Part shown: piece by piece, positions 39,317-54,537 of the stretch
Layout of the letters: each line of letters begins with the position of its first letter
Numbering within the stretch: the stretch's first letter is position 1
From: Lentisphaerae bacterium GWF2_38_69
GTDB taxonomy: Bacteria > Verrucomicrobiota > Lentisphaeria > Victivallales > GWF2-38-69
Reading direction: 5' to 3'
DNA: 64,000 nt
Assembly: GCA_001803205.1 (NCBI GenBank)
Contig: MHBE01000042.1
Location: 10,262 to 74,261 of the forward strand
The notes under the pieces: model-generated
What the model was told of the DNA's origin: nothing
Database searches by the model: none
Seen by the model: only the letters and a program-made list of their open reading frames with translations
Made by a program: the position numbers and the translations under genes

Positions 39317-42300
39317 ATGGCTAATTTTATTACAAATAGCGGGGTGAATGACCTTAAAAAGCGGATAGTTGAGCTTCTTAAGAGAAGCGATGAATTGAAG
39401 TTCTTAGTCGGATTCTTCTATTTTTCTGTAATAAGGGAGCTTTATGAGGGACTGAAATCAAATCCTGAAACCATAACAAAGATCCTTGTTGGTTTAAGCG
39501 TCGACCATTCCAACTTAGGGATGATTGAATTCTCGGAAAACGAGCAGCTATCAGATGAAGAAACGACATATAAGTTTTTTGAGTCAGTTAAAAAATCCTT
39601 GAACACAGAGAATTTTGATACGAAAGAGTTTTACGAACAGATACGGTTTTTCATCGAACTCATCCAGAAAGACAAGTTGATTATCCGTAAGACCTATAAA
39701 CCCAACCACTCCAAGTTATATCTTTTCAAACTTGAGCAAAGTCAGGTTGGCAAGAAACAATTGTTTATAACAGGCAGCAGCAACCTGACAAAGGCCGGGC
39801 TTTACACTCAGAATGAATTTAATGTGGAGATTGGCGACTATGGATTTGAAGATGCGGAAAAATATTTTGACGAACTTTGGGGAGATGCAGTAAAAATTAC
39901 GGAATTCAATGATACTAAAAAGAAGCTTGTTGAGGTGATTGAAAAGGAAACTCTTATTAAAGATATTTCGCCGTTTGAAGCTTTTTGCCTAGTCTTAAAA
40001 ACCTATTTGGACTCGTTTGAACAAAAAGATATAGGTGAATCTCTGAAAAAAACAATGGAAGAAAATGGCTACACTCCATATCTGTATCAGCTTGATGCGG
40101 TAAAACAGGCCTTAGCCATTATTGAAAACAATAACGGCGTAATAGTAGCTGATGTGGTAGGTTTGGGGAAAACTATTATTGCCTGCGCCATTGCCAAGCA
40201 GCTTAAAAAACGGGGCGTTATTATTTGCCCACCCGGTCTTGTCGGAGACAAAAATAAAAATTCAGGCTGGAAGAAATATACAGAGGAATTCGGGCTTTAT
40301 GAATGGGAGGTGCGTTCTCTTGGCGATCTGGAAAATACTTTGGAATTTGTTCAGAAATTCAGAGACATCGAGGCAGTGATTGTTGATGAGGCGCACCGTT
40401 TCAGGAACCAGGATACTCAGGATTATGAATTCCTTAAAAATATCTGCAGGGAAAAGCAGGTTATCTTGCTGACTGCCACTCCTTTTAACAATCGCCCAGG
40501 CGACATTCTTTCACTTCTCAAGCTATTTATTACGCCCAAAAAATCGTCAATCACTTTAGAAAGCAACCTTGTTGACCAGTTCCATGGATTTAAAGGCACT
40601 TTTGACCGGCTTGGTTACATAAAGAAATACTGGAAATCATCTGACAACTCAAAAAGAACCAAAGCCCAAACTTATTACAAGGCATTATTTGAAGAAGACA
40701 AAGTTGATTTAAAGAAAGTTTCCGGCAGGGCGCGCTATCTAGCCAGGCAAATCAGAGATGTTATTGAACCTGTGACTATCAGGCGAAACCGTTTGGATCT
40801 TCATAATAATCCTTTGTATAAAAATGAGGTAAAAGAGCTATCCAAGGTAGCTGACCCCATTGAATGGTTTTTTGAATTAAGCAAAAAACAATCTGAATTC
40901 TACTCTGAAATAATTGAGAGCTATTTTGGCGACCACGATGAGTGCGGACGCTTCAAGGGCGCTATATACCGCCCCTTTGAGTATGAAAAAGATATTAAAG
41001 GAAAGATAAACGAAGAAGATAACAGACAGCTCCAGCAGCAGCGAAACTTGTTTGATTTCATGCGTCGATTGCTGGTTAAGAGATTTGAAAGTTCTTTTGG
41101 CGCCTTTATGCAAAGCATTAGGAATTTCAAAAAGATTACTTTGAATGCGCTGACTTTCATAGAGAAGACCGGCGAATATATTCTGGATCGGGGACTGCTT
41201 GAGAAAATCTATGAACTCGGCGAGGATGAGATAGAAAAGTATCTTGCCGAATATGAGGATAAAATAAACAAAGGCGAGTATCCAAAGAATCATAAACGAT
41301 ACAAAATAAAGAACTTTGATTTGAGAGACGAGTTCCTTGCTCATATTCAATCCGACCTTGATTTATTTGATGAGATACTAGACAGGCTTTCTAATCTGGA
41401 TTTAGTAAAGAATGATCCTAAAACAGATTGCCTTATTGAAAATATAAAGAAGGAATTTGCAGGAAAACCGAACAAAGGCGAGCCAAGGCGAAAGATAATT
41501 ATTTTTACAGAATATGTTGATACTGCTAACTATATAGAAAAAGCTCTAAGGAATAATTTTGGCGACAGGATACTGGTGGTTGCCGGTGATTTGCCGCCAT
41601 CGAAGATTATTCAGATAAACAAAAACTTTGATGCTTCCTATTCTGAGCAGGAAAATTATTTCGACTTGCTGCTTGCTACAGATAAGATTTCCGAAGGGTT
41701 TAACCTTAATCGCGCCGGGATGGTTATAAATTACGATATCCCCTGGAATCCGGTGCGGGTTATCCAGAGGCTTGGCCGTATTAACCGTATCAGCAAAAAA
41801 GTTTTTGATGAACTTTATATCGTGAATTTCTTCCCTACCGAAAAGGGAGCGGAACTGGTGCAATCCCGCGAAATTGCAGCCAATAAAATGTTCCTTATCC
41901 ATAATGCACTGGGCGAAGATTCAAAGATATTCGATATAGACGAAGAACCGACTCCTGCAGGTTTATTCAGGCGCGTCCAACAGAATCCTGACGAACTGGA
42001 GGAAGAGAGTTTTTATACCAAAGCTTTCAAGGAATATTTGAGGATCAAAAAAGAACATCCTGCATTAATTGAAAACCTTAAAAACTATCCACCTCGAATA
42101 AAGGTGGCAAAGCTATACAGTGAAAATGAACTTCTGGTGTTCTTCAAAAAAGGCCGTTTATATGTAAGCGCTGCTAAGACTCAAACAGATAAAGTTGCAC
42201 CATACCAGACTGTGTTTGAAGATGTCTTTGAGAAAGTTGCCTGCAAGTCAGATGAAAAATCGCTTAATTGGAACACTGATAAATTCTGGCAGGCATATCA

Positions 42301-42637
42301 GACAATTCAAGATTTTAAAAATTATCGCCTACTCCCAACCAATGAACAAAGTTTAGAAATTAAAGCATTGAACAATCTTGCTTTTCTTATCAAAAACGCA
42401 AAAGAAGAACTGATGCCTCACAAGGATTTTCTGCGCACTCTTAAAGAAGATATATTAGGTTATGGTACCCTGGCTGATTATACACTGCGCAGGATTTCTA
42501 ATTTTAAAGAAGATTCCATCAAAGACCTTCAGGAACTAAAAGATGAATTGGGCGAAGATTATCTGATCAAAGAAAAGAATCACCTGAAAGACCAGAAAAA
42601 GGAAATAATTATAGCTATACAAAACCTTAAGGAATAA
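39317..42637 (+). CDS. PLD-family (single HKD motif) nuclease domain fused to an SNF2/DEAH-box helicase-translocase
   Basis: HKD motif NHSKLYLFK...FITGSSNLTKAG in the first 170 aa or so. Helicase motifs ADVVGLGKT (I), VIVDEAHRFRN (II), LLTATPFNNRPGD (III), and KIIIFTEY...LLATDKISEGFNL...INYDIPWNPVRVIQRLGRINRI (IV-VI). Uninterrupted 1106-aa frame. Confidence 0.85.
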   Translation: MANFITNSGVNDLKKRIVELLKRSDELKFLVGFFYFSVIRELYEGLKSNPETITKILVGLSVDHSNLGMIEFSENEQLSDEETTYKFFESVKKSLNTENFDTKEFYEQIRFFIELIQKDKLIIRKTYKPNHSKLYLFKLEQSQVGKKQLFITGSSNLTKAGLYTQNEFNVEIGDYGFEDAEKYFDELWGDAVKITEFNDTKKKLVEVIEKETLIKDISPFEAFCLVLKTYLDSFEQKDIGESLKKTMEENGYTPYLYQLDAVKQALAIIENNNGVIVADVVGLGKTIIACAIAKQLKKRGVIICPPGLVGDKNKNSGWKKYTEEFGLYEWEVRSLGDLENTLEFVQKFRDIEAVIVDEAHRFRNQDTQDYEFLKNICREKQVILLTATPFNNRPGDILSLLKLFITPKKSSITLESNLVDQFHGFKGTFDRLGYIKKYWKSSDNSKRTKAQTYYKALFEEDKVDLKKVSGRARYLARQIRDVIEPVTIRRNRLDLHNNPLYKNEVKELSKVADPIEWFFELSKKQSEFYSEIIESYFGDHDECGRFKGAIYRPFEYEKDIKGKINEEDNRQLQQQRNLFDFMRRLLVKRFESSFGAFMQSIRNFKKITLNALTFIEKTGEYILDRGLLEKIYELGEDEIEKYLAEYEDKINKGEYPKNHKRYKIKNFDLRDEFLAHIQSDLDLFDEILDRLSNLDLVKNDPKTDCLIENIKKEFAGKPNKGEPRRKIIIFTEYVDTANYIEKALRNNFGDRILVVAGDLPPSKIIQINKNFDASYSEQENYFDLLLATDKISEGFNLNRAGMVINYDIPWNPVRVIQRLGRINRISKKVFDELYIVNFFPTEKGAELVQSREIAANKMFLIHNALGEDSKIFDIDEEPTPAGLFRRVQQNPDELEEESFYTKAFKEYLRIKKEHPALIENLKNYPPRIKVAKLYSENELLVFFKKGRLYVSAAKTQTDKVAPYQTVFEDVFEKVACKSDEKSLNWNTDKFWQAYQTIQDFKNYRLLPTNEQSLEIKALNNLAFLIKNAKEELMPHKDFLRTLKEDILGYGTLADYTLRRISNFKEDSIKDLQELKDELGEDYLIKEKNHLKDQKKEIIIAIQNLKE

Positions 42638-42648
42638 TTTTGTGAGAT

Positions 42649-44118
42649 ATGAGCGAAGCAATTGAAAATATTCTGATTCTTCCTGAAGGTAAAACTCTGG
42701 AATTTAAAAGAGATATATCTTCCCCAAAGCCTATTTTGAAAACCTTAACTGCGTTTGCAAATACCGCAGGAGGAAAACTTATCATCGGCATAAGCGATTC
42801 AAAGACAGTTATCGGTGTCGAAAACCCTCTTGACGAAGAAGAAAAGCTCTGCAGTATAATTGCAGACTCTATTGCTCCAAAATTAGTTCCTAATGTTGAA
42901 TTAGTTACATATCAGGATAAGACTTTGCTGGTTGTTGAGGTATTTTTGAGTTCATTGAGACCTCATTATTTAAAAGCAGAAGGATCCGATAGAGGGGTTT
43001 ATGTCAGGCTTGGTTCTACTAACAGGTTGGCGGATAAGGAATTAATAGAAGAGCTTCGCCGTTCTGTAGATGGTGTTGCTTTTGATGAGATGCCTATGCC
43101 TGGTCTGAAAGTTGATAATCTGGATTTAAATGCCGCAACTGAATTATTCGGAAGGAATGATGAACTGACTGAAAAGGAACTGCTTACTCTAAAGATTCTG
43201 ACGAAATATCAAGGCAGGTTGATACCTACCAAAGGGGCTGTTCTGTTATTTGGAAAGGAAAGAATTTCACATTTTCCTGACGCATGGATACAATGCGGCC
43301 GTTTCATAGGAAAGGATAAATCAGAAATCTTCGACCATACCGATATCTATGATCCTCTTCCATTAGCAGTCGAAAGCATAATGCATTTCCTAAAGAAAAA
43401 TGCTATAAAAGGGGCAGATTTCTCAAAAACTCGCCGACAGGATGTCTGGAGTATCCCTCTGACAATCTTGAGAGAGGCTGTAATTAATGCCATTGTTCAT
43501 TCAGACTACTCCCAGAGAGGCGCTCCCATCAGGATTTCATTTTTCGACGACCGCATTGAGGTCGAAAATCCAGGAATCTTATTGCCTGGCATGACCATAG
43601 AAGATATGAAGCAAGGCATTTCCAGAATCCGTAATCCTGTTATAGCCCGTATCTTCCGCGAACTTAACTTCATTGAACAATGGGGAAGCGGAGTACGAAG
43701 AATATTTAAAGAAGCAAAAGAGAAAGGACTTCCCGAACCCCAGATAATAGAAATCGGCATGCGTTTGCGCTTTATAATTCCATTTGCTGAACTTCATACG
43801 ACACAAGTTGAAGCACAAGTTGAAGCACAAGTTGAAGCACAAGTTGACATAGATATACTTTCTGTATGCTCTTCTAATCCCATTTCCTCCGCTGAATTAG
43901 CAAAGGCTCTTGGTCATAAACAGTTAAGCGGCAACATTAGGAAAGCTATTCCCAGACTGAGAGAGACTGGCTTATTAGAATATACTATACCTGATAAACC
44001 CAGGAGCCGTAATCAGAAGTACAAACTGACTCAGAAAGGCCAGAACATGAAAATAGCAATAACTAACAGAGAGATAGCAAATGAGCGAGGCAAGACAGAT
44101 ATTAGAAACGATAATTGA
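42649..44118 (+). CDS. Schlafen/AlbA_2-type domain + HATPase_c_4-like domain + C-terminal winged-helix protein (often auto-annotated as RecG-like ATP-dependent DNA helicase or transcriptional regulator)
   Basis: LPEGKTLEFKRDISSPKPILKTLTAFANTAGGKLIIGI (AlbA_2), REAVINAIVHSDY...IRISFFDDRIEVENPG (HATPase-like), and C-terminal LRETGLLEYTIPDKPRSRNQKYKLTQKG (wHTH). Starts 11 nt after the upstream stop. Confidence 0.8.
   Translation: MSEAIENILILPEGKTLEFKRDISSPKPILKTLTAFANTAGGKLIIGISDSKTVIGVENPLDEEEKLCSIIADSIAPKLVPNVELVTYQDKTLLVVEVFLSSLRPHYLKAEGSDRGVYVRLGSTNRLADKELIEELRRSVDGVAFDEMPMPGLKVDNLDLNAATELFGRNDELTEKELLTLKILTKYQGRLIPTKGAVLLFGKERISHFPDAWIQCGRFIGKDKSEIFDHTDIYDPLPLAVESIMHFLKKNAIKGADFSKTRRQDVWSIPLTILREAVINAIVHSDYSQRGAPIRISFFDDRIEVENPGILLPGMTIEDMKQGISRIRNPVIARIFRELNFIEQWGSGVRRIFKEAKEKGLPEPQIIEIGMRLRFIIPFAELHTTQVEAQVEAQVEAQVDIDILSVCSSNPISSAELAKALGHKQLSGNIRKAIPRLRETGLLEYTIPDKPRSRNQKYKLTQKGQNMKIAITNREIANERGKTDIRNDN
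43804..43847 (+). repeat. 12-bp tandem repeat (caagttgaagca, about 3.7 copies) encoding (QVEA)n in an interdomain linker
   Basis: Read directly: caagttgaagca x3, then caagttga. Translated as QVEAQVEAQVEAQVD. Confidence 0.9.
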
Positions 44119-44276
44119 TGATTTTTCCATCGATAAGTTCAGTCGTTTTTTTCGTAAAAAGAGCCGTCAGTTTGCAGAGCGGACAGAAAATTATTCTCAC
44201 TACAACGATGAATGGTTTACAAGCTCTACGCCTGACTCCCGAAGAAATCCGCATCATCGAAGGCGTGGATAAATGA
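44081..44276 (+). pseudogene. Collapsed relic of a type IIG-like (Eco57I/TaqI-C-type) methyltransferase/restriction gene: N-terminal about 46 aa joined out of frame to the C-terminal about 22 aa
   Basis: The N-terminal piece MSEARQILETIIDDFSIDKFSRFFRKKSRQFAERTENYSHYNDEWF overlaps the upstream gene by 38 nt. A second frame (44208-44276) reads MNGLQALRLTPEEIRIIEGVDK*, the ...L(Y)GLTxEEIxIIEG tail typical of such enzymes. The family assignment is from memory only. Confidence 0.5.
44244..44263 (+). repeat. Left copy of a perfect 20-bp direct repeat gaaatccgcatcatcgaagg
   Basis: Identical 20-mer found at 46298-46317. The flanking bases differ. Confidence 0.9.
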
Positions 44277-44377
44277 TAATCAGATATTTAGATTGTATCG
44301 AATTAGAATTAAGGTTTAATAAAATATAAATTGATGTTGAATATATTATCTTTTGATAATTACAAACGGAGGAACAA

Positions 44378-45457
44378 ATGATATCAAAACTGTGTATCAG
44401 CCGATTTAAGGGCTTTGAACATCTAGAATTGTCAAAACTTACAAGAGTTACGCTACTAGGCGGCAAAAATAATGTCGGGAAGACTACTATTCTGGAAGCC
44501 CTTTTCATGTTTTTTGATAGGTTTAACCCTCAGATGATACTGCGTCAGTTTGCACTTAGGGGCGTAAATGTCATTCCGATGGAACCTGAGTCTATGTGGG
44601 CTCCAGTTTTTAATAACTACGAACTTACGAAGTCAATTATAATTTCCGGCTTAGTGGACAGGAAAGAAGAAAAAATGACAGTTAAATTCAATCCAAACTA
44701 TATTGCATCCATTCCTGCAGATATTCCCAAGTCGGGAGAAAGATCATTACAGATTAGAACCGACCAGAAGCCTGTCCCATCCTATGCTCTGGATATAACT
44801 TATGACAATAAGGAAATGAAAAACCAGACAGCACACCTTCTGATGAGCCAAAGCGGTATTGGAATACAAATTGACAATGCAAAAATGAAAAAAAACTATC
44901 AGATAACTTTTATAGGAGCAAGAGGCTCGGGGAATCCATCTGAAGACGCTGTTCGTTTTGGACAATTAGATATATTAGGCATGCAGAATAAGATACTGGA
45001 TTTGCTAAAAATTGTAGAACCTAACCTAAAAAGCCTCTCTTCAATATCAATGGGTGATACTTCTATGGTTTACGGAGATATCGGGCTTTCCAGGAAGATA
45101 CCAATATCATATATGGGTGATGGCGTGTCTCGCCTTTTAACGATTATTTTAGCTATTGCAACTGCAAAGAATGGCATTGTTGCTATTGATGAGTGCGAGA
45201 ACGGTATTCACTACTCGGTAATGCCAAAAGTATGGAAAGGAATTGTTCATGCCGCAAATGAGTTTAATTGTCAGGTCATAGCTACCACGCATAGCGATGA
45301 GTGTTTAAGAGCTGCTTATGAAGGGCTTTCAGGAGAATTTGAAAAAGATCTTAGTTTTACTCGAATTGACCGTCTTCCAAATAGACAAACATTAGCAAAA
45401 ACTTTTGACTATGAGATGCTCAGAGTTGCTTTTGAAACGAATATGGAGGTGCGTTGA
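44378..45457 (+). CDS. ABC/SMC-type (AAA_15/AAA_21-like) ATPase
   Basis: Walker A LLGGKNNVGKTTILEAL, Walker B IVAIDECENGIH, and ATTHS H-loop. Strong RBS (CGGAGGA). Confidence 0.8.
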   Translation: MISKLCISRFKGFEHLELSKLTRVTLLGGKNNVGKTTILEALFMFFDRFNPQMILRQFALRGVNVIPMEPESMWAPVFNNYELTKSIIISGLVDRKEEKMTVKFNPNYIASIPADIPKSGERSLQIRTDQKPVPSYALDITYDNKEMKNQTAHLLMSQSGIGIQIDNAKMKKNYQITFIGARGSGNPSEDAVRFGQLDILGMQNKILDLLKIVEPNLKSLSSISMGDTSMVYGDIGLSRKIPISYMGDGVSRLLTIILAIATAKNGIVAIDECENGIHYSVMPKVWKGIVHAANEFNCQVIATTHSDECLRAAYEGLSGEFEKDLSFTRIDRLPNRQTLAKTFDYEMLRVAFETNMEVR

Positions 45458-45458
45458 A

Positions 45459-46106
45459 ATGCCTCTTAATAAAGATAAAAAGACACGGATTGAGCGAAGC
45501 AAGCTTATTTTAGCCGAGGGCTTGGATGCATACTTTTTTTGCATATGGGCATGTAATACTTACAGACCGGAAACTATCCAAATTCTTGATTTTGGTGGTA
45601 TAGGTGACTTAAGCAAGTTCATTGCAGGAATAAAACTTCTGCCAAATTATGAACAGGTAGAAACAATCGTAATACTTCGGGATGCCGAAAAGGATGCTAA
45701 GTCAGCTATTGACAGCATAAAAAGCTCATTAAAAAAAGAAGGGTTTTCCATACCTAAAAAGCCTTGCGAATTTACTTCTTCCTCTCCGCGTATTGCCTAT
45801 ATGGTGTTACCAGGGTTTGGTAAAGATGTTGATGGGATGAATTATCTTCCTGCTGGCACTCTTGAAGATCTTTGTATCGAGATTGTTAGTAACGATCCGA
45901 TCATAGAATGCGTAGATCAATATCTGCAATGCGTGCAATCTAAAAACACTAAGCTGACACATCCTCACAAAGCAAAGCTCCATGCTTATCTTGCAGGTAA
46001 AAATGAGTATGTTGGATTGAAAATTGGAGAAGCTTCCAAAGCAGGAGTATGGAACTGGGAGCATGAAAGGCTTAAGCCCTTTAAAGAAGTAATAATGGCG
46101 ATGTAG
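45459..46106 (+). CDS. TOPRIM-like partner protein (DUF3226/DUF4276/RloB-like class; exact family unresolved)
   Basis: LILAEGLDAYFF (conserved Glu), IVILRDAEKD (acidic cluster) and GTLEDLCIE. The ATG at 45459 follows GGAGGTG and lies 1 nt after the ATPase stop. Confidence 0.6.
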   Translation: MPLNKDKKTRIERSKLILAEGLDAYFFCIWACNTYRPETIQILDFGGIGDLSKFIAGIKLLPNYEQVETIVILRDAEKDAKSAIDSIKSSLKKEGFSIPKKPCEFTSSSPRIAYMVLPGFGKDVDGMNYLPAGTLEDLCIEIVSNDPIIECVDQYLQCVQSKNTKLTHPHKAKLHAYLAGKNEYVGLKIGEASKAGVWNWEHERLKPFKEVIMAM

Positions 46107-46115
46107 AAGATGATT

Positions 46116-46181
46116 CTATCAACAATCTAGCGTGAAATAAATGGAGTTTTGTTGATAGTTGTCGATAGAAAATGTTGATAG
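46116..46181. promoter_or_regulatory. Cluster of four copies of a 9-bp motif TGT(T/C)GATAG (one inverted, three direct): candidate operator upstream of the AbiE module
   Basis: ctatcaaca at 46116-46124 (inverted). tgttgatag at 46150-46158, tgtcgatag at 46160-46168, tgttgatag at 46173-46181. Confidence 0.45.
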
Positions 46182-46330
46182 AACTAAAATTATCAGTAAT
46201 GGAAATGACAAAAAAGGCGTTTGATATTGTCAAACAAAAGGGATCAACTGCTCCAAATCCCGTTTCAATCACCATGGAAAGACAGAAATCTGTTCCTGAA
46301 ATCCGCATCATCGAAGGTACTTCAAAATGA
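46172..46330 (+). CDS. Small ORF (52 aa) translationally coupled (ATGA overlap) to the AbiEi-like gene; may instead be a leftover gene tail
   Basis: MLIELKLSVMEMTKKAFDIVKQKGSTAPNPVSITMERQKSVPEIRIIEGTSK*. Below the track's size cut-off. Contains the right copy of the 20-bp repeat. No clear RBS. Confidence 0.3.
   Translation: MLIELKLSVMEMTKKAFDIVKQKGSTAPNPVSITMERQKSVPEIRIIEGTSK
46298..46317 (+). repeat. Right copy of the perfect 20-bp direct repeat gaaatccgcatcatcgaagg
   Basis: Identical to 44244-44263. In both places it encodes EIRIIEG near a stop codon. Confidence 0.9.
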
Positions 46331-47052
46331 AGATAACAACATTAGAACATCTTAATAGTTTTATAAAAAAAGCGGGGCAATATTTCCGATATGCCGATGT
46401 GAAAGCATTTCTTATTTCACAAAATACCAAAGTGTCTGATTCTACACTTCAAACTTATCTGAGTAGGGAAATAGCTAAAAAAAACATTTTCAGCGCAGGG
46501 AAAGGATGGTATTCAAAGCAGGAAAAAGAATTTAGACTGAATGTCGAACCCATTCAGAAGATAATTGGACTGATAAAACAAAAGTTTCCTTTGCTGGAAA
46601 TTTCCTGTTGGAGCACTGAACAAATAAACTCATTCACTCACCATATGCTGGGAAAGCATATAACTTTTATCTATGTAGATATTGATGCGGTCAATTCAGT
46701 GCATGAATTTCTACTTGATAATGGATATAATTCTTATGATAATCCTACGAAAAAGGAAACACAAAAGCATTTCAGGGCAACAAACAACACTGTAGTTTTA
46801 AGAGCTTCTATAGCAAAGCAGCCGGAAGATCTAAGCGGAGCTTCTTCTGTTGAAAAATTACTCGTCGATCTAATTTTTGAAAACAGGAAATTACATATTA
46901 TGCCAGAAGATGAGATAGAGAACATTTTTGAAAGTATTTTAAAATATGAAAGAATTAATGTCTCTACTCTTTTTTCGTATGCCAAGAGGCGTGAAATGGA
47001 TATCCAAGAAATCAAGAAATTCCGGATTTTTAATTTATCCGGAAATCCTTGA
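46327..47052 (+). CDS. AbiEi-like antitoxin/transcriptional regulator (type IV TA / abortive infection)
   Basis: N-terminal wHTH-like FRYADVKAFL...LQTYLSREIAKKNIFSAGKGWYS (compare the AbiEi ...rG.Y motif). Sits directly upstream of an AbiEii-family gene. Confidence 0.6.
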   Translation: MKITTLEHLNSFIKKAGQYFRYADVKAFLISQNTKVSDSTLQTYLSREIAKKNIFSAGKGWYSKQEKEFRLNVEPIQKIIGLIKQKFPLLEISCWSTEQINSFTHHMLGKHITFIYVDIDAVNSVHEFLLDNGYNSYDNPTKKETQKHFRATNNTVVLRASIAKQPEDLSGASSVEKLLVDLIFENRKLHIMPEDEIENIFESILKYERINVSTLFSYAKRREMDIQEIKKFRIFNLSGNP

Positions 47053-47075: not shown

Positions 47076-48155
47076 ATGATAAAGCGTAAATATTTTCAAG
47101 AAGAAACTATAAGAGCTAAACGAAATGAGTTAAAAGTCGCAGATCCCGGCTTATTTGAGAAAGCTATTCATGCCTTTGAACTATTAGGCTGCCTTGCGGA
47201 ATCAGGGTTGGATTTTATATTCAAGGGCGGCACTTCTCTTATGCTTCATATTCCCGAACCTCAGAGATTATCTATAGATATAGACATATTGTCAGGAGAA
47301 AAACCTGATAACCTCGACTCAAAGCTAAAAAGCATTAGCATGATGTATCCATTTTTAAGATGTTATGAAGACGAGAGAGGGCACAGAGGTTTGCCAAATC
47401 GCAGGCATTTTAAATTTTTCTATAACTCTCAGATATCTAAAAGGGAAGATAGTGTTCTTCTTGATATAGTTGAAGAAAATAAATGTCTTTTGCCTATACA
47501 GGAAAAGGTCATTAAATCCACTTTTTTTGAGACAGATAGAAATGTAAAAGTAAAAGTTCCAATACCCGAAGGGCTTCTTGGCGACAAGTTGTCGGCTTTT
47601 GCTCCCAATACTCTTGGAGTGCCTTTCTTAACAAAAAGCGGGCATCTCCATTCTCTTCAGGTAATCAAGCAGATGTTTGATATTGGACAGCTTTTTGATA
47701 TAGTCGCTAACTACAAAGAAGTATTTGCCGCCTATCTTGCTTCTTATAAACAAGAAAATGAATATAAAAAAGGTATTTATACACTAGAACAAGCTCTTGA
47801 TGATTCAGTAGAAACAGCTCTCGAGGTTTGCCGGATGGGGTTACGAGGACATAAGGCTTCAGATATTTCTGGTTATTTAGATGATGGCATTAGAAAACTT
47901 CAAAATCATTTAATATCAAATCCATTTAGACCAAATATTGAAGCGAAAATATCAGCATCAAAAGCATTTGCTCTATTTAAAATGATAAGAGGAAACTCTT
48001 TTGATTTAATGACAGAATACGGGTTATATATTCAGTCGGAAAAACAGATAGAATTGATAAGAAGTAATTCGATAGACTCAACTATCGACAGGCTGAAGAA
48101 AACTAATCCCGAAGCCTACTACTACTTGCTTCTTGGTATTTTATCTTCACAATAA
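47076..48155 (+). CDS. Nucleotidyltransferase AbiEii/AbiGii toxin family protein
   Basis: FIFKGGTSLMLHIPEPQRLSIDIDIL matches the DUF1814/AbiEii signature (KGGTAL...R.S.DiD). Confidence 0.8.
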   Translation: MIKRKYFQEETIRAKRNELKVADPGLFEKAIHAFELLGCLAESGLDFIFKGGTSLMLHIPEPQRLSIDIDILSGEKPDNLDSKLKSISMMYPFLRCYEDERGHRGLPNRRHFKFFYNSQISKREDSVLLDIVEENKCLLPIQEKVIKSTFFETDRNVKVKVPIPEGLLGDKLSAFAPNTLGVPFLTKSGHLHSLQVIKQMFDIGQLFDIVANYKEVFAAYLASYKQENEYKKGIYTLEQALDDSVETALEVCRMGLRGHKASDISGYLDDGIRKLQNHLISNPFRPNIEAKISASKAFALFKMIRGNSFDLMTEYGLYIQSEKQIELIRSNSIDSTIDRLKKTNPEAYYYLLLGILSSQ

Positions 48156-48718: not shown

Positions 48719-51700
48719 ATGAATTTATTGAGTTTAGGAAAAAATTATTTTAGAAATCTGATCAGGTTATTTTTTTTACTTCTAATTATTTATAATGCCA
48801 ATCTAATGGCTGCGGATGCCAAAGAATCGGGGGATGTGTGGTTGTCTGCCTATGAGATATACGAAAAAGCGGAAGGTTTTTATGAGAAAGAAGACTATTC
48901 ATCGGCGATGGTGTATTACGCTAGAGCTCTAACTAAATTTGAAGAACTCAAGGATAAATATCCTGACTGGAATTCAGAATTGGTTGAATACCGCATTACA
49001 TATTGTGAAGAAAGAGACACTCTGATAAGAAATAAACTTTCTAATAAGAAGAAAAGACTTCCCGAAGACGAGTTAGTCAAAGAAAATATTGACATGCATT
49101 CAAAGCTTGTCGAATATCAGGATGAGCTTTATTCCGAACAGAAAAAGTTAAAGGATGCTCTTAGAAAAATAGAAACAGGCAATAATGAAATAAGCAAAAA
49201 CTCTGCCGCCGCTGAAAAGCTAAGAGAAGTTCTCAAGGAAAAGATTGAACTCGAAAAAAAATATAATTTTCTGAATGAGCAGTACTCTTCCGAAGAGAAA
49301 AGCAAAGAAGTTCAGCAAATGCGTTCCAATCTTGAAAATCAGCGCTTTGAAATAGAAAACCTCAGACAAGAGAAAAGCAAAATGTCAGCTGACCTTTCTG
49401 CTCTCAATAAGAAATATCTGGAACTTTCAACACAAAAAGCTGATATCGATTATATGTACAAAAGCGCTTTAGGAAAAGCTAAAATGTCTGAAGAAGAAAA
49501 GCAGAAAGTAGCCGCAAAGCTTGATGCAGTTTCAGGAGAGCTTGAAAATGTCAGGACTGAAAAAGAAAGAATAGGTGAGCGAGCCAATAAACTTCAGGAA
49601 TTGCTTGAGAACATTAAGGAAACAGCACCGAAAGATACCGATTCACCGGACGAAATAGCCCTTAGAAATGAAAACGAGGCGTTGAAAAGACAGTTAAATG
49701 GATTTCAATCCGAAATTGATAAACTCTCTCAGATTCGGGATTCTTATAGTTCGCAGCTTAAAACAATTCAGGACTCATACGAAAGCTCTACGAAGAACAT
49801 CTCTGCCTTGAACAGCAGGTACCAGGCGCTTAATAGTGAATCTGAATTACTGAGAAATCAAATAAAAGGAAAAACCGAGGCTGAACTTTCTGCAACCCGG
49901 AAAATAAACGAACTTGCTTCCAGCCTGGCTGACAGCAAAGAGTCCTATAATCTTCTAAGCGATAAGTATAAAGCGCTTGAGAAAAATCAGGCCGTTCTAC
50001 CTGAACTTCAGCAGAAAAACCAGTCATTGGAGACACAAAAAAAAGATCTGGAAAATTTGCTCGAAAACTATCAGAAAAACCTGGAAAGTATCAAACAGGA
50101 AAGAGACTCACTGGAAATGTCCAGAAAAGCACTCGAAGAGGAAAAGAGCAACCTAATCAAAGATCATCTAGCATCCAAGAATGCAGATGATGAAAAATAC
50201 AAAGCCAGACTAACTGAGCTGGATGAAGCAACTGGCAAACTTAAAACCCTTGAAACGGCCAAACTTGATCAGCAGAAAAAGATTGAAGATTTGATAAACG
50301 AATCAGCAAAGAAAGAACAATCATATAATAAACTTTCAGAAGAGAACCTGAAACTAACAAACAAGGCTATGAGCGCGGATAAAATGTTGCGTCAGCTTCA
50401 GGAAGAGTACAATAAGAATTCCAGCGCTTACTCGGATTTAAGTCAGAAATTAAATCAGAATAATGTTAAGCTCCAGGAATATGAATCAGCAAGGGGAAAT
50501 CTGGAAAATCTACTCAAGAACACGACTGAAGCAAAAGAAAATGCAGAAAAGCTCAGCAAAGAACAGATTAAGAAATATGATGAGCTAAACAGCAAATTTA
50601 CGGAGAAAGAGAAGTCCATTGAGGACTTTCAGAATAGGTTGTCGCAAAAGGATGAAGAACTAAGTCAGTCACTAAAGAAAGCTGAAGAACTTAAGAACTT
50701 TTCAGCCAAGGATAAAGAAAAAATCGATTCCCTGCTTGATTCCATAGGTAATTTATCAAAGGACATTGAATCAAAGAATATCGACAAAAAAAACCTCGAA
50801 GAGAAACTTGCAACAGCAGCGGACAAGGCATCAGCAATGGAACTGCATAATAAAGCTCTTGAAGACAAATTCAGTGATTTGCTTAAAGGTTCAAAGAAAC
50901 TGAATGAAGAACGCGCTTCCGTAGAGAGAGAACGCAATGAAGTTATCAGGAAACTCGCAGAGGCAAATGAAAACTTGAAGAAATCGCGTTCGGACCTCGA
51001 TGAAAGTTCTGAAAAAAGGAAAAAGCATCTTGACGAGATAGCTTCTCTTAAGAGTTCACTTGAGGCCATTCAGGGAAAACTGGACGCTCTTTCCAATGAG
51101 AATGATCAATTGAGACAAAATCTTGACGACTCAGCTAAAAAAGCGGAGGCTTTTGAAGATGAAAAAACTCAATATTTAAATCAAATTAAAGAGCTTGTGG
51201 GTAATCTTGAAAATGCTGAAAAGAGAAATGAATCTTCAGAATCAATGCGTTCACTTACTGAAGAAAGATTTATATCTATTAATAACAGAGTAAACGACCT
51301 GGAAAAAATCCGCCAGGATCAGAGCGCTCTGATACAGAGCCTTCAGGGACAGTTAGAACAGGTCACTAAGGAATCTCAAACTGAAAATACCGCTGACGAC
51401 CTCTCTGAACTTACATCAGAACTTACCAGAGCAAATGAGAAAATCAGCAGTTACGAAACTCAAATCGCAGAAAGCTCTGAAAATATCCTTAAATATCAGT
51501 CAGAATACGCATCAATGAAGTTTGACCTGGATAAGGAAAGAAATGCCAGAGCTCAACTTCAAAATAGATTCGATGAAGCAAGTAGACAGCTTGACGCTAT
51601 GAAGAACCAACTAGACGCGCAAAAAGTTAATACAGACAAAATGATCTCAAACATGAATTCTATGAGTGAAAAATTAAGGCAGTCTGAAGAGAGTGCCGAA

Positions 51701-54451
51701 AAATTACAGAACGATTCACTTAAGGCTGCAGAGGATTTTGAACATGCCAAAAAGAATTATGAAGAGAAAGTTTCTTCTCTGAATTCCCAGATTGAAGCTC
51801 TTACAAATGAAAAATCAGAACTCATTTCAAGTACCGCGGAGAATGCAAAGCTGAACTCTGAACTCAATTCTGCAAACCTTAAAGTTGACGCTCTGGAAGG
51901 ACAGCAAAAAGAAAATATATCTAAAATAGAAAATCTTCTTGCTCAGCTAGATTCCGAAAGACAGCTTTCTTCAGGCAGCACTACAGCAAACAGTGAAATA
52001 GCTCAAGAGATAGACAGTTTTAAATCCCAATTGTTATCTTATGAGTCTGAAAAAAAATCAATTAAAAGCCAGATAGATAACCTAGCTGCCGCAGTTGATG
52101 AAAGAGATAAGAAAATAGAAGAACTTGAAACAAATCTTAAAGAATCCAATGATAAACTCACCTCAGCTTTAGATGAAAAAGAAAAACTCAAAGAGGCTTT
52201 CAATGGGACTTCTGAAGAATTATCTCAGGCTAAAAATGCTGTGACAGGCCTAAAAACAGAGCTTGCCCAAAATTCCTCTAACTTATCCGAACTCCAGAAG
52301 AACCTCGATAATTCAAAGAAAGCATATTCTGACAGCACGCAGAAAGTTAAAGAACTTTCACAGATTGTCCAGAAAGCAGAATCTGAAATAGAGGATTATA
52401 AGAAACAGAAATCTGATTATGACACGAAAGTCCAATCGCTTAACTCTGAACTATTATCTGCTGTTTCCAAAACCCAGGAGCTAGAGAAAAATGAAGATGT
52501 AATTCAGATGGAAAATGATACTCTGAGAACCCTTCTTAATACGCTTGAAGCAGACAATAACTCCAAGGACGGCAAAATCCGTGAATTAAGTGGAATAGTT
52601 GACTCTTCGCAAACGATAACTGATTCCCTGTCAGATGTAAAATTAAATCTAGAAGCACTCTCAAAAACTTCAGAAAAGGAACTTAAGGAGCTAAGAAGCA
52701 AGTATGAGAAACAGTTAGAGATTAATAATGCCCTTGTTAAAGAACTGGAATCTTATAGAAATAAAGGACAGCAACTGGATAAAGCCAATTCTGATATGAA
52801 TTCAGACCTTGCAAAAACAAAAAGAGATCTTAGCGAAACTCTATCTAAAAATGAACTGCTCAAGGAAAATCTTGATTCGATATCAGCCGAACTTGAAAAA
52901 GCTAAATCAGATTCTGCAAATTATCAGAGAGAGTATGACAAGCTTTCAGCTATATTCAATAGTATCCAGAAAGAACTTGAAGCTGCTAAAAATGAAAAAT
53001 CAGCTTTACAAGAAGAGTTTACAAAAGCAAAAAATGATTTTGCCGCACTTAGAAATCTGGAAACGGATAAGAAACTTACAAAGATTCAGCTTGAATACGA
53101 CCAGCTCTTTAAAAGAAATTCTGATACTGAAAATGAAGTGACTGAAACCAAAAATAAACTAAATTCTGTTTCCCTGAAACTTAAGGAATCTGAACTGCGC
53201 AAAAAAAACCTTGAAGAAATCAATGAATCTCTGCAGAAAAAACTTATTGATGCTAATTCCAAAAATCAGGAACTTTCCAGAGTATACTCAGAAAAAGAGA
53301 CTATCATTATCGAACTTAGTGACGAGCTTAAGACTCTAAAAGAGGATCTTAAGGATAAAACTTCTAAAAACCTCCTTCTTTCTGAAAATGTTGAAGCCCA
53401 AAAAGAAACTGTTTCTATCATTTCAAACGAAAATGCTGATCTCAAACAGCAAGTAACGGATGCGGAACTTAAAAATTCAGAGCTTCTCAAATCTTTTTAC
53501 GAGAAAGAAACCGCATCATTGGAACTCAAAGATGAAATCAGAAGTTTGAATGATGAACTTAGAACTGAAATATCAAAGAGCGCTGTTTTGGCTAATGAAC
53601 TAAATGATCAAAAAGAGCAAGTTTCGAAAACCCAGACTGAAAAAAGGCTTCTTCTTTCCAAAATAGCTTCTTATGAGACTCTCGTATCGGTTATTAAAAA
53701 AGAGAAAAATGACATTGAAGGCAAATATAAATTACTTCTGCAGAAAATTCAGGATTTTACCAGAAAGCTTAAAGAACCTGCAATAACAAATAAGGATGAC
53801 ACTGAGAAAATCGCTCAGTTGAGATCTGAAAATGTTTCTTTAAATCGTGAAATCCTAGCTCTTAATAGGAAAATACAGACACTCAAGTATAAAAAGATTA
53901 ATCCACAGGCAATACTGTCAAAAGAAGATAAAGAAAGACTCATGAAGCTTGTCAAGTCTGCCAGAATGTCAATAGCCCAAAATGACTTCAGCTCAGGGTA
54001 TAAGTATCTGGGTATGGCTGCAGATATTGCGCACGATAATTACCAGATACAGAAAAACGCAGGTCTCCTGGCCATGACCAACAGCGATTATTCTGCCGCC
54101 TTAAAATATCTTAGCAACGCTAAAAGCATTTCCATTAATGACGATGAAAATAATTCCATTCTACTTGCTTTGTGCCATATCTATATTGGAGACTATAGTA
54201 AGGCTTTGATAGAGTTTAATAATGCAGCTGAACTCGAAAAAAACACAAAACTTGGCAAAGCGCTGGATGCTTACTGTCTGGATCTGATTTCAGGAATGAA
54301 GAGCACGAAGAATTCAGAAAAATCGATGAAAGAGTTTATCCATTCCCCTGAAATGGCTTCGAAACTTTCTTCTATCTTGCTTCTCTGTAATCCTCCAAAA
54401 ATTCAGGAAGCTGAAAGATGGAACTCCGTGAGCCCTAAAGAAAATAATTGA
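48719..54451 (+). CDS. Giant (1910 aa) exported coiled-coil protein with TPR-like caps at both ends
   Basis: Signal-peptide-like LFFLLLIIYNANLMA/AD. N-terminal TPR-like YEKAEGFYEKEDYSSAMVYYARAL. About 1600 aa of uninterrupted E/K/L/Q/N/S-rich heptad-like sequence. C-terminal TPR-like AQNDFSSGYKYLGMAADI...GDYSKALIEFNNAAEL. Confidence 0.85.
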   Translation: MNLLSLGKNYFRNLIRLFFLLLIIYNANLMAADAKESGDVWLSAYEIYEKAEGFYEKEDYSSAMVYYARALTKFEELKDKYPDWNSELVEYRITYCEERDTLIRNKLSNKKKRLPEDELVKENIDMHSKLVEYQDELYSEQKKLKDALRKIETGNNEISKNSAAAEKLREVLKEKIELEKKYNFLNEQYSSEEKSKEVQQMRSNLENQRFEIENLRQEKSKMSADLSALNKKYLELSTQKADIDYMYKSALGKAKMSEEEKQKVAAKLDAVSGELENVRTEKERIGERANKLQELLENIKETAPKDTDSPDEIALRNENEALKRQLNGFQSEIDKLSQIRDSYSSQLKTIQDSYESSTKNISALNSRYQALNSESELLRNQIKGKTEAELSATRKINELASSLADSKESYNLLSDKYKALEKNQAVLPELQQKNQSLETQKKDLENLLENYQKNLESIKQERDSLEMSRKALEEEKSNLIKDHLASKNADDEKYKARLTELDEATGKLKTLETAKLDQQKKIEDLINESAKKEQSYNKLSEENLKLTNKAMSADKMLRQLQEEYNKNSSAYSDLSQKLNQNNVKLQEYESARGNLENLLKNTTEAKENAEKLSKEQIKKYDELNSKFTEKEKSIEDFQNRLSQKDEELSQSLKKAEELKNFSAKDKEKIDSLLDSIGNLSKDIESKNIDKKNLEEKLATAADKASAMELHNKALEDKFSDLLKGSKKLNEERASVERERNEVIRKLAEANENLKKSRSDLDESSEKRKKHLDEIASLKSSLEAIQGKLDALSNENDQLRQNLDDSAKKAEAFEDEKTQYLNQIKELVGNLENAEKRNESSESMRSLTEERFISINNRVNDLEKIRQDQSALIQSLQGQLEQVTKESQTENTADDLSELTSELTRANEKISSYETQIAESSENILKYQSEYASMKFDLDKERNARAQLQNRFDEASRQLDAMKNQLDAQKVNTDKMISNMNSMSEKLRQSEESAEKLQNDSLKAAEDFEHAKKNYEEKVSSLNSQIEALTNEKSELISSTAENAKLNSELNSANLKVDALEGQQKENISKIENLLAQLDSERQLSSGSTTANSEIAQEIDSFKSQLLSYESEKKSIKSQIDNLAAAVDERDKKIEELETNLKESNDKLTSALDEKEKLKEAFNGTSEELSQAKNAVTGLKTELAQNSSNLSELQKNLDNSKKAYSDSTQKVKELSQIVQKAESEIEDYKKQKSDYDTKVQSLNSELLSAVSKTQELEKNEDVIQMENDTLRTLLNTLEADNNSKDGKIRELSGIVDSSQTITDSLSDVKLNLEALSKTSEKELKELRSKYEKQLEINNALVKELESYRNKGQQLDKANSDMNSDLAKTKRDLSETLSKNELLKENLDSISAELEKAKSDSANYQREYDKLSAIFNSIQKELEAAKNEKSALQEEFTKAKNDFAALRNLETDKKLTKIQLEYDQLFKRNSDTENEVTETKNKLNSVSLKLKESELRKKNLEEINESLQKKLIDANSKNQELSRVYSEKETIIIELSDELKTLKEDLKDKTSKNLLLSENVEAQKETVSIISNENADLKQQVTDAELKNSELLKSFYEKETASLELKDEIRSLNDELRTEISKSAVLANELNDQKEQVSKTQTEKRLLLSKIASYETLVSVIKKEKNDIEGKYKLLLQKIQDFTRKLKEPAITNKDDTEKIAQLRSENVSLNREILALNRKIQTLKYKKINPQAILSKEDKERLMKLVKSARMSIAQNDFSSGYKYLGMAADIAHDNYQIQKNAGLLAMTNSDYSAALKYLSNAKSISINDDENNSILLALCHIYIGDYSKALIEFNNAAELEKNTKLGKALDAYCLDLISGMKSTKNSEKSMKEFIHSPEMASKLSSILLLCNPPKIQEAERWNSVSPKENN

Positions 54452-54537
54452 TAAATCTACATAAAATAATTCTAACTTATTGCTTGTTCACACCAGCTCA
54501 GAAAAAGAACCGTCTCAATTTTGTTGTGTTTTAAAAA

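Follow-up and report, generated by a model that had tools for sequence, protein, structure and literature searches.

Orphan 3' ends of a methyltransferase gene probably mark a slot for the exchange of defence cassettes in a Lentisphaeria genome

Bacterial defence hotspots, for which a review (PMC12707154) cites Rousset 2022, provide a useful comparison for the locus described here. The locus lies in a 64-kb stretch (the window, meaning the whole stretch that was analyzed) of the Lentisphaeria metagenome-assembled genome (MAG) GWF2_38_69 / DOAR01000058, and in it two exact copies of a 20-base sequence bracket a two-gene cassette with matches to AbiL. In the hotspots of P2 and P4 and of the E. 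coli and Pseudomonas core genomes, fixed slots beside conserved genes hold changing anti-phage systems, and the exchange is put down to homologous recombination in flanking sequence (PMC12707154; see also PMC13586616). The locus studied here shares with these hotspots a fixed slot, varying anti-phage systems, and the lack of a dedicated recombinase within the slot, but its flank consists of the last ~35-70 codons of one gene, and copies of that flank are left inside the array as blocks of homology. We argue that these orphan ends of a methyltransferase gene probably mark a slot of repeated gain, loss, and exchange of defence cassettes.

Other described systems resemble this locus in part. Specificity domains are shuffled in type I HsdS subunits and in type IIG enzymes, and "domain movement" is known in Helicobacter. 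As in those cases, a hypervariable recognition block lies here between conserved recombination arms; unlike in those cases, the downstream arm also bounds a cargo slot, so that a swap can bring whole defence genes along, or strand them, with orphan arms remaining. Downstream of rhs and cdiA, orphan toxin-tip modules accumulate as displaced 3' segments and keep a conserved stretch for later recombination. Displaced 3' segments pile up downstream of the main gene here as well, but the 3' tip is variable in rhs and cdiA, whereas here it is conserved and flanked by the variable parts. Islands inserted at the 3' ends of tRNA, tmRNA, or protein genes, and integron arrays, also have 3'-end direct repeats around inserted DNA and can form tandem arrays; in contrast, our loci have no integrase, tRNA, attC-like structure, or fixed repeat length, and the repeat copies have diverged. 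Finally, abortive-infection and type IV restriction genes may stand within or beside a restriction operon, as do PrrC in EcoprrI and BrxU in BREX (PMC12707154). Accessory defence genes ride with restriction loci here too, although PrrC and BrxU are single embedded genes, while here methylase 3'-end relics stand between several cassettes in an array. A homologue of AbiL itself, for example, stands in a type I restriction operon, flanked by hsdM and hsdS (L139 2400-10978, also L140 and L141; L numbers denote the loci that we compared), with an AbiLi 74% identical to that of the window, and no duplication of the hsdM end was found around AbiL in such type I loci (L139). In our literature searches we found no account of cargo arrays interspersed with methylase 3'-end relics, nor of the helicase-methylase system discussed below (PLD-SNF2, Eco57I, and AlbA_2) as a named defence system.

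The 20-base sequence GAAATCCGCATCATCGAAGG is present at 44244-44263 and 46298-46317, both on the + strand, as an initial sequence-only reading had reported. No further copies were found in the window even when up to 3 mismatches were allowed, and there is no other perfect repeat of this length within 38-56 kb. Shuffled sequences gave an expectation of 0.01 matches, and two or more matches occurred in none of 100 shuffles, which rules out a chance match as the origin of the pair. The two starts are 2,054 bp apart, and 2,034 bp separate the copies. Each reads EIRIIEG in frame, followed by VDK and a stop codon in copy 1 and by TSK and a stop codon in copy 2; the sequence-only reading had placed this peptide immediately before the stop, which is right as to frame and vicinity, with three codons intervening. 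It had also called the flanks unrelated, and for the most part they are: 0 of 7 bases agree immediately 3' of the 20-mer, and the 5' flanks have in common only a TCC that is aligned by a 3-nucleotide (nt) indel. The exception on the 3' side is AAATGA, found at an equal offset after both copies, which brings the identity of the final nucleotides to 26 of 33. Within this shared sequence, the stop codon is overlapped by an ATG (ATGA), equally far from the repeat in the two cases (44274-44333 and 46327). It starts abiEi after copy 2 and only a 19-codon open reading frame (ORF) after copy 1. The first 30 nt of the latter agree with abiEi at 16 of 30 positions, and this short ORF may be what remains of a downstream gene that was once coupled.

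Between the copies lie two adjacent genes that fit the AbiLi and AbiLii profiles (Table 1), by which the cassette is assigned to AbiL, with a predicted role in phage resistance. No shift in composition was seen across it. Behind copy 2, an AbiEi-type regulator is followed by an AbiEii nucleotidyltransferase, both of which match their profiles, as expected for AbiE, a type IV toxin-antitoxin system. The initial description of the 2,034 bp as a two-gene cassette plus its downstream spacer is thus borne out for the cassette; the 191 bp from the AbiLii stop to copy 2 instead form the 5' portion of a module, conserved in other organisms, that is an older orphan of a methylase 3' end.

The identity of the repeat emerged from its homologues. 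An exhaustive search with the 52-amino-acid (aa) ORF ending in copy 2 yielded two small homologues, P0003 (43 aa) and P0006 (47 aa). The contig of P0003 (L085/L088) also holds an intact system composed of a PLD-SNF2 helicase, an AlbA_2 protein, and a 1320-aa Eco57I/TaqI_C methyltransferase, whose C terminus is PVSIAMERQKSVPEIRIIEGLGK and whose gene includes the exact 20-mer at its 3' end. A metagenome scan with the tail alignment then gave 48 loci. Full-length members of the family (1180-1340 aa) terminate in PVSIAMExQKTVPE[VI]RIIEGLDK and a stop codon, carry Eco57I and TaqI_C domains, and match the PADLOC type IIG models, and a PLD-SNF2 helicase adjoins the tail-bearing methylase in every locus with enough upstream sequence. 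Copy 2 matched a model of 21 methylase tails with an nhmmer E value of 2.9e-12 and, by eye, 26 of its last 33 residues are identical to the methylase tail of L088. For copy 1 the match is confined to the last ~12 codons of the methylase, including the exact 20-mer that it has in common with five methylase genes from unrelated loci. Both copies stand in frame just before the stop, as do the corresponding codons of intact genes (family consensus GLDK and a stop). By sequence homology, then, both 20-mers are the last codons of a predicted N6-adenine methyltransferase gene of the Eco57I/TaqI_C type (type IIG-like), which agrees with the earlier proposal that the copies are tails of methylase-type genes. 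The predicted methyltransferase is the putative methylation and specificity subunit of a restriction-like system made up of a PLD-SNF2 helicase and the methyltransferase. No NCBIfam model attains its cutoff for the helicase or methylase of the tail-bearing system, or for the helicase of the window.

The exact 20-mer is found at the methylase 3' end in L088, L096, L099/101/102, and L124, while third-codon positions differ in other members. Because these positions vary across the family, the motif is conserved as protein, and the 20-mer is the codon version of one sub-lineage; the perfect identity of the two window copies is therefore, by itself, no sign of a recent duplication. In the loci compared, the exact 20-mer was not found anywhere other than at methylase 3' ends. 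A dispersed genomic repeat, which had been named at the outset as the result that would speak against a recombination scar, was rejected: the 20-mer is present just twice in the window, and every further occurrence in the loci compared is a methylase 3' end. The copies lie in an island at 39.3-57.3 kb, and Eco57I and N6_Mtase domains are absent from every ORF in it. With no methyltransferase domain in the island, both copies are relics.

Copy 2 belongs to a module of ~215 bp (46112-46330) that is 87% identical to a module in L088/L086 and, being common to another organism, is older than the present arrangement of the window. The neighbours of this module differ on both sides. On its left are AbiL in the window and in L138, and AlbA_2 fragments in L088 and L086; on its right are AbiE in the window and a DUF1016 fragment in L088 and L086. 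In L138, AbiL is 85% identical at the nucleotide level, the homology to the window spans 44337-46167, and beyond 46167 there is a shortened copy-2 module ending in CTGAAGTGCGCATCATCGAAGGCCTGGATA, a stump that is a deletion derivative of the long module. The two window copies therefore appear, on sequence grounds, to be homologous relics of different age rather than a recent duplication produced by the arrival of AbiL.

The conservation of the module is uneven. Its 5' part (~87 nt) is 88.5% identical to L088/L086, and its 43-codon ORF part is 75% identical to L088 in nucleotides, with a ratio of nonsynonymous to synonymous change (pN/pS) of 0.42. The 5' element (window 46112-46198; L088 9902-10001; L086 885-984; L138 1802-1877, after AbiLii) contains four GTYGATAG motifs, one inverted and three direct, and 10-nt inverted arms CTATCAACAA/TTGTTGATAG. 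By eye, this part is apparently a decayed methylase region (..NNLPE.K.DWS..) with an inserted GTYGATAG cluster, and the element looks like a putative operator or promoter. A promoter scan over it did not score above shuffles. The GAAGG of the copy-2 20-mer sits 9 nt before the abiEi ATG, and the stop and start codons overlap as ATGA, so the module may supply abiEi with a promoter, a Shine-Dalgarno-like sequence, and an overlapping stop/start. The predicted fold of the 5' part has a z score of -3.2 because of the inverted 10-mers; as these account for the fold signal and there is no Rfam match within 43.5-47 kb, an RNA element at the repeats was rejected. The element had no matches in viruses or plasmids.

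It is possible, though unlikely, that the orphan module has been kept for use, either as an expression adaptor (promoter/operator plus coupled leader ORF) or as a small functional peptide. Such a use would suit the stronger conservation of the 5' part, the motifs and promoter-like site, the pN/pS of the ORF, and the placement of GAAGG and ATGA before abiEi, and other tails likewise stand 12-15 nt before the next start codon. However, the promoter scan was no better than shuffles, the 43-codon ORF has no obvious ribosome-binding site, copy 1 is coupled to a mere 19-codon ORF, and a pN/pS value is weak evidence when the ORF has only 43 codons, and could date from a period in which the sequence was still part of an active methylase. 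Use as an adaptor would also supplement an origin as a scar rather than replace it. A bolder version, to which we likewise give little credence, would make the methylase 3' end, with its stop, ribosome-binding site, and start junction, a dedicated docking and expression adaptor in an integron-like array without a cis-encoded integrase; the copy-2 module would then act as a mobile promoter/operator, passed between phyla and bringing new cargo under the regulation of the system, and the common start of the short stumps described below would be a real crossover site.

Arrays of tails and cargo recur outside the window. Of the 29 distinct loci whose downstream sequence extends for at least 2 kb, 4 have at least two tails by the nhmmer tail model, namely L088 (three tails), L094, L113, and L124, to which the window is added. 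The genes between or after the tails are DUF1016 and AlbA_2 (both between tails) and Bro-N in L088; Bro-N fragments and a GIY-YIG gene, between the tails, in L094; a 151-aa ORF between the tails and then FRG and RhuM in L113; and a 279-aa ORF between the tails and then GmrSD in L124. Tail copies inside one locus are 70-96% identical and ~25 to ~250 nt long. The 62-88 aa "orphan" tails of L111 and L121 were discarded as frameshifted full-length genes. More generally, the gene directly behind the tail stop differs in nearly every locus. These genes included AlbA_2, GmrSD, KAP NTPase, wHTH-DUF4325, SIR2-HD, SEC-C, AAA_13, AIPR, AbiEii, PDDEXK_3, Bro-N, DUF1016, and FRG/RhuM, as well as some without a known family (L105, L111, L124, and L128), and they often begin 12-45 nt past the stop or overlap it. 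The recurrence of tail-cargo-tail arrays supports the suggestion of a recombination scar made in the sequence-only reading, with the crossover mechanism proposed below as the probable route, and the changing neighbours of the copy-2 module and of the tail stop lend support to its idea of a hotspot of cargo exchange.

An att-like site could also place direct repeats around a cassette. On this explanation the tail end would be an att-like core at which a trans-acting site-specific recombinase inserts cassettes, and the repeats would be attL/attR-type duplications; three short stumps that begin at nearly one position just 5' of the 20-mer, and cargo that begins immediately behind the tail stop codon, would fit it. 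Nevertheless, we regard it as improbable. Recombinase domains are absent from L088, L094, L113, and L124, and domain scans of ORFs and a tRNA search found no integrase, transposase, or tRNA in the window island; none of these is present in the arrays either. The orphans, at ~25 to ~250 nt, have no fixed extent, and copies within a locus are only 70-96% identical. Third-codon positions vary freely across the family, leaving no conserved DNA core, and one of the three stumps, that of L138, derives from the long module by deletion.

A fresh local duplication at the insertion of AbiL, by target-site duplication or by single-crossover integration of a circle in this lineage, is very improbable. It would predict what is seen at first sight, 20 perfect bases with the cassette exactly between them. 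But identity is lost abruptly, with none of the 7 bases matching 3' of the 20-mer and unrelated sequence 5' of it; copy 2 is part of a module that predates the arrangement, being 87% identical in another organism; the 20-mer is intact in five other lineages, so that its perfection does not imply recency; and the AbiL cassette boundary defined by L138 (44337) lies 60 nt past copy 1. A transposon target-site duplication is ruled out by the lack of a transposase and of inverted repeats at 44264 and 46297. The core-site consensus of integrons is GTTRRRY, which GTYGATAG does not fit; there is no IntI, and the junctions are coding-derived direct repeats, so an integron cassette array is ruled out as well.

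How methylase tails might come to be stranded can be seen in the family itself. In an alignment of 13 full-length methylases, core identity is 0.5-0.9, identity in a variable block is 0.06-0.29, and identity in the tail is 0.47-0.72. The hypervariable block spans several hundred alignment columns, and we take it to be the target-recognition (specificity) domain. As a conserved block after this domain, the tail can serve as a homology arm. Comparison of L100 (10-1675) with L124 (1676-3491) shows a specificity-domain swap that stranded a tail: nucleotide identity is 70.6% in the core and 87% over the last 140 nt, with nothing in common in the recognition region between them, while the L100 reading frame stops exactly at the junction, leaving the old tail as an out-of-frame orphan. 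The tail is thus at once the arm that lies downstream in specificity swapping and the border of the cargo slot on its upstream side.

We infer homologous or homology-facilitated illegitimate recombination as the process, and the order and direction of events given here are to be read in the same way. The conserved tail of ~35-70 codons would lie, as a homology arm, between variable zones formed on its upstream side by the specificity domain and on its downstream side by the cargo slot. A segment from a related locus would enter by one crossover in conserved methylase sequence, and an imprecise other join, upstream of the resident 3' end, would displace the old end downstream, where it would be kept as an orphan. 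Such orphans would then provide portable homology for later gain, loss, and exchange of cassettes, giving rise to tail-cargo-tail-cargo arrays, and staggered double crossovers, with methylase or tail on the left and an orphan tail on the right, could add, remove, or replace cassettes. In the window, the methyltransferase would have been lost, the copy-1 stump joined to the head of a gene that we call gene X, and AbiL placed between copy 1 and the older copy-2 module. If the two 20-mers recombined with each other, 2,054 bp would be lost and copy 1 would come to lie directly before abiEi, in line with the deletion that the sequence-only reading had suggested.

The history of copy 1 is the part of this scheme that is hardest to read. 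It is a tail stump of ~40 nt with an out-of-frame junction to the first 47 codons of gene X, and it is identical to the short tail of L138 at 25 of 28 nt. Two protein searches found homologues of the gene X head solely among ORFs of 61-82 aa, each truncated elsewhere, and protein searches found no full-length parent. The head has a pN/pS of 0.22-0.31, which points to purifying selection. Gene X is also truncated in L005, whose helicase is 64% identical to that of the window. The pattern MSEAxQILxxIIxDFSxxKFSRFF..HYND..F..G.KLGEI.FS recurs behind different cargo genes in L004 (307-531), L005 (3144-3329), and L137 (165-413). In L137, a perfect 55-nt direct repeat (342-396 and 1483-1537) surrounds a 364-aa REase-ARP gene; since its length equals the usual metaSPAdes k-mer and it reaches the contig end, it is probably an assembly loop and we treated it as an artefact.

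Several observations weigh against the proposed slot or complicate it. Gene X has no significant similarity to the N termini of tail-bearing methylases (3 bits with a hidden Markov model [HMM]; 1.6% probability in hhalign), and the window helicase is only 26-27% identical to the helicases adjoining tail-bearing methylases; together these make the origin of copy 1, own or imported, ambiguous. An internal deletion may have left behind the end of the resident gene, or the stump may have come with imported DNA. The low helicase identity weakens the idea that copy 1 arose solely because a resident methylase was deleted internally. N termini like the gene X head may belong to Eco57I-family enzymes; gene X as the methylase head is unsupported by protein searches, the N-terminus HMM, hhalign, a PDB profile search (best E=0.19, judged noise), and tblastn against plasmids (no matches); the status of the 63-aa ORF 5' of copy 1 as a methylase relic could not be demonstrated. 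Additionally, three short stumps (window copy 1, L088 7291-7328, and that of L138) start within a few nucleotides of one another, between PE and [VI]RII, which random breakpoints do not predict. In a Geobacter MAG (L143 8001-11661; L144 3922-7582), AbiLi-AbiLii is followed directly by AbiEi-AbiEii (protein identities to the window 66%, 47%, 35%, and 54/32%), and the methylase tail is absent from the 109-nt spacer between AbiL and AbiE, so that the pair may travel together by other routes. Lastly, no recombination event was directly observed. The search for a single-copy allele on near-identical contigs, as suggested in the sequence-only reading, found neither an empty nor an alternative allele within the species; contigs with identical flanking proteins all show the same arrangement. 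Even so, taking the identity of the tail, the recurrence of the arrays, and the change of cargo on both sides of the copy-2 module together, we consider a slot marked by orphan methylase ends the probable reading.

The features of the island around the repeats are collected in Table 1. The island is set between housekeeping genes, with a proC-like gene and an aldehyde dehydrogenase gene on the left and a molybdopterin oxidoreductase gene on the right. Its first gene is not assigned to DISARM class 1, as the DrmD-like match reaches 153 bits against a cutoff of 610 and there are no DrmA or DrmB genes. Proteins with AlbA_2 and HATPase_c_4 domains are frequent companions of restriction and BREX loci, and an AlbA_2 gene is placed between helicase and methylase in L088, L091, L099, L103, and L131. 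Within the AlbA_2 gene of the window, a perfect 12-nt tandem repeat, CACAAGTTGAAG, is present in ~3.8 copies at 43802-43847 and codes for QVEA repeats, the number of which varies, with more in the L005 homologue. To the right of AbiE, the interval 48719-57261 encodes an SMC/Rad50-like coiled-coil protein of 1910 aa, which matches JetC and LmuB weakly and is convergent with a second, 907-aa SNF2 helicase (ZorD/DpdE-like) on the opposite strand at the right end of the island. The two may form a further unnamed defence system.

Table 1. Features around the two 20-mer copies in the window
Feature	Position	Strand	Evidence or remarks
PLD(HKD)-SNF2 helicase-nuclease, 1106 aa, first island gene	39317..42637	+	Pfam PLDc_2, SNF2-rel_dom, Helicase_C; PADLOC 'HKD+Snf2', DrmD-like
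AlbA_2 / HATPase_c_4 / Fic-like_C winged-helix protein, 489 aa	42649..44118	+	Pfam
Gene X head, 47 codons	44081..44221	+	Called 63-aa ORF continues to 44272; its frame differs from that of the tail
14-nt joint, gene X to copy 1	44222-44235	+	
Copy 1, short methylase 3'-end remnant ending in PEEIRIIEGVDK and a stop	44236..44276	+	20-mer 44244-44263; stop 44274-44276
AbiL cassette	44337..46167	+	Bounded by 85% nt homology to L138
AbiLi	44378-45457	+	PADLOC AbiLi 2.5e-50 (full length), PDC-M38A 8e-56; Pfam AAA_15/AAA_21
AbiLii	45459-46106	+	PADLOC AbiLii 8.1e-7; Pfam DUF3226
Copy-2 module, 5' part	46112..46198	+	Four GTYGATAG motifs: 46116-, 46151+, 46161+, 46174+
Promoter-like TCGATA-17-TAAAAT in copy-2 module 5' part	46162-46190	+	Promoter scan
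Copy 2, 43-codon orphan ORF, MEMTKK.. to PVSITMERQKSVPEIRIIEGTSK and a stop	46199..46330	+	20-mer 46298-46317; stop overlaps abiEi start (ATGA)
AbiEi (DUF6577), antitoxin-type	46327..47052	+	Pfam 3.5e-38; PADLOC AbiEi 1.7e-38
AbiEii nucleotidyltransferase, toxin-type	47076..48155	+	Pfam 5.7e-18; PADLOC AbiEii 2.8e-89

Defence islands are known to build up around restriction systems, and how they do so is mostly unexplained; in the loci compared here, a trace of the process is visible at the level of sequence. The end of a methyltransferase gene would act as an arm for specificity swapping and would also have been left repeatedly as orphans that separate defence cassettes. If this is true, RecA-dependent loss and exchange of cassettes between tails would be expected, with breakpoints concentrated in the tail. 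Orphan gene-ends may also serve as a search handle for cargo slots, and for new defence genes, in metagenomes.

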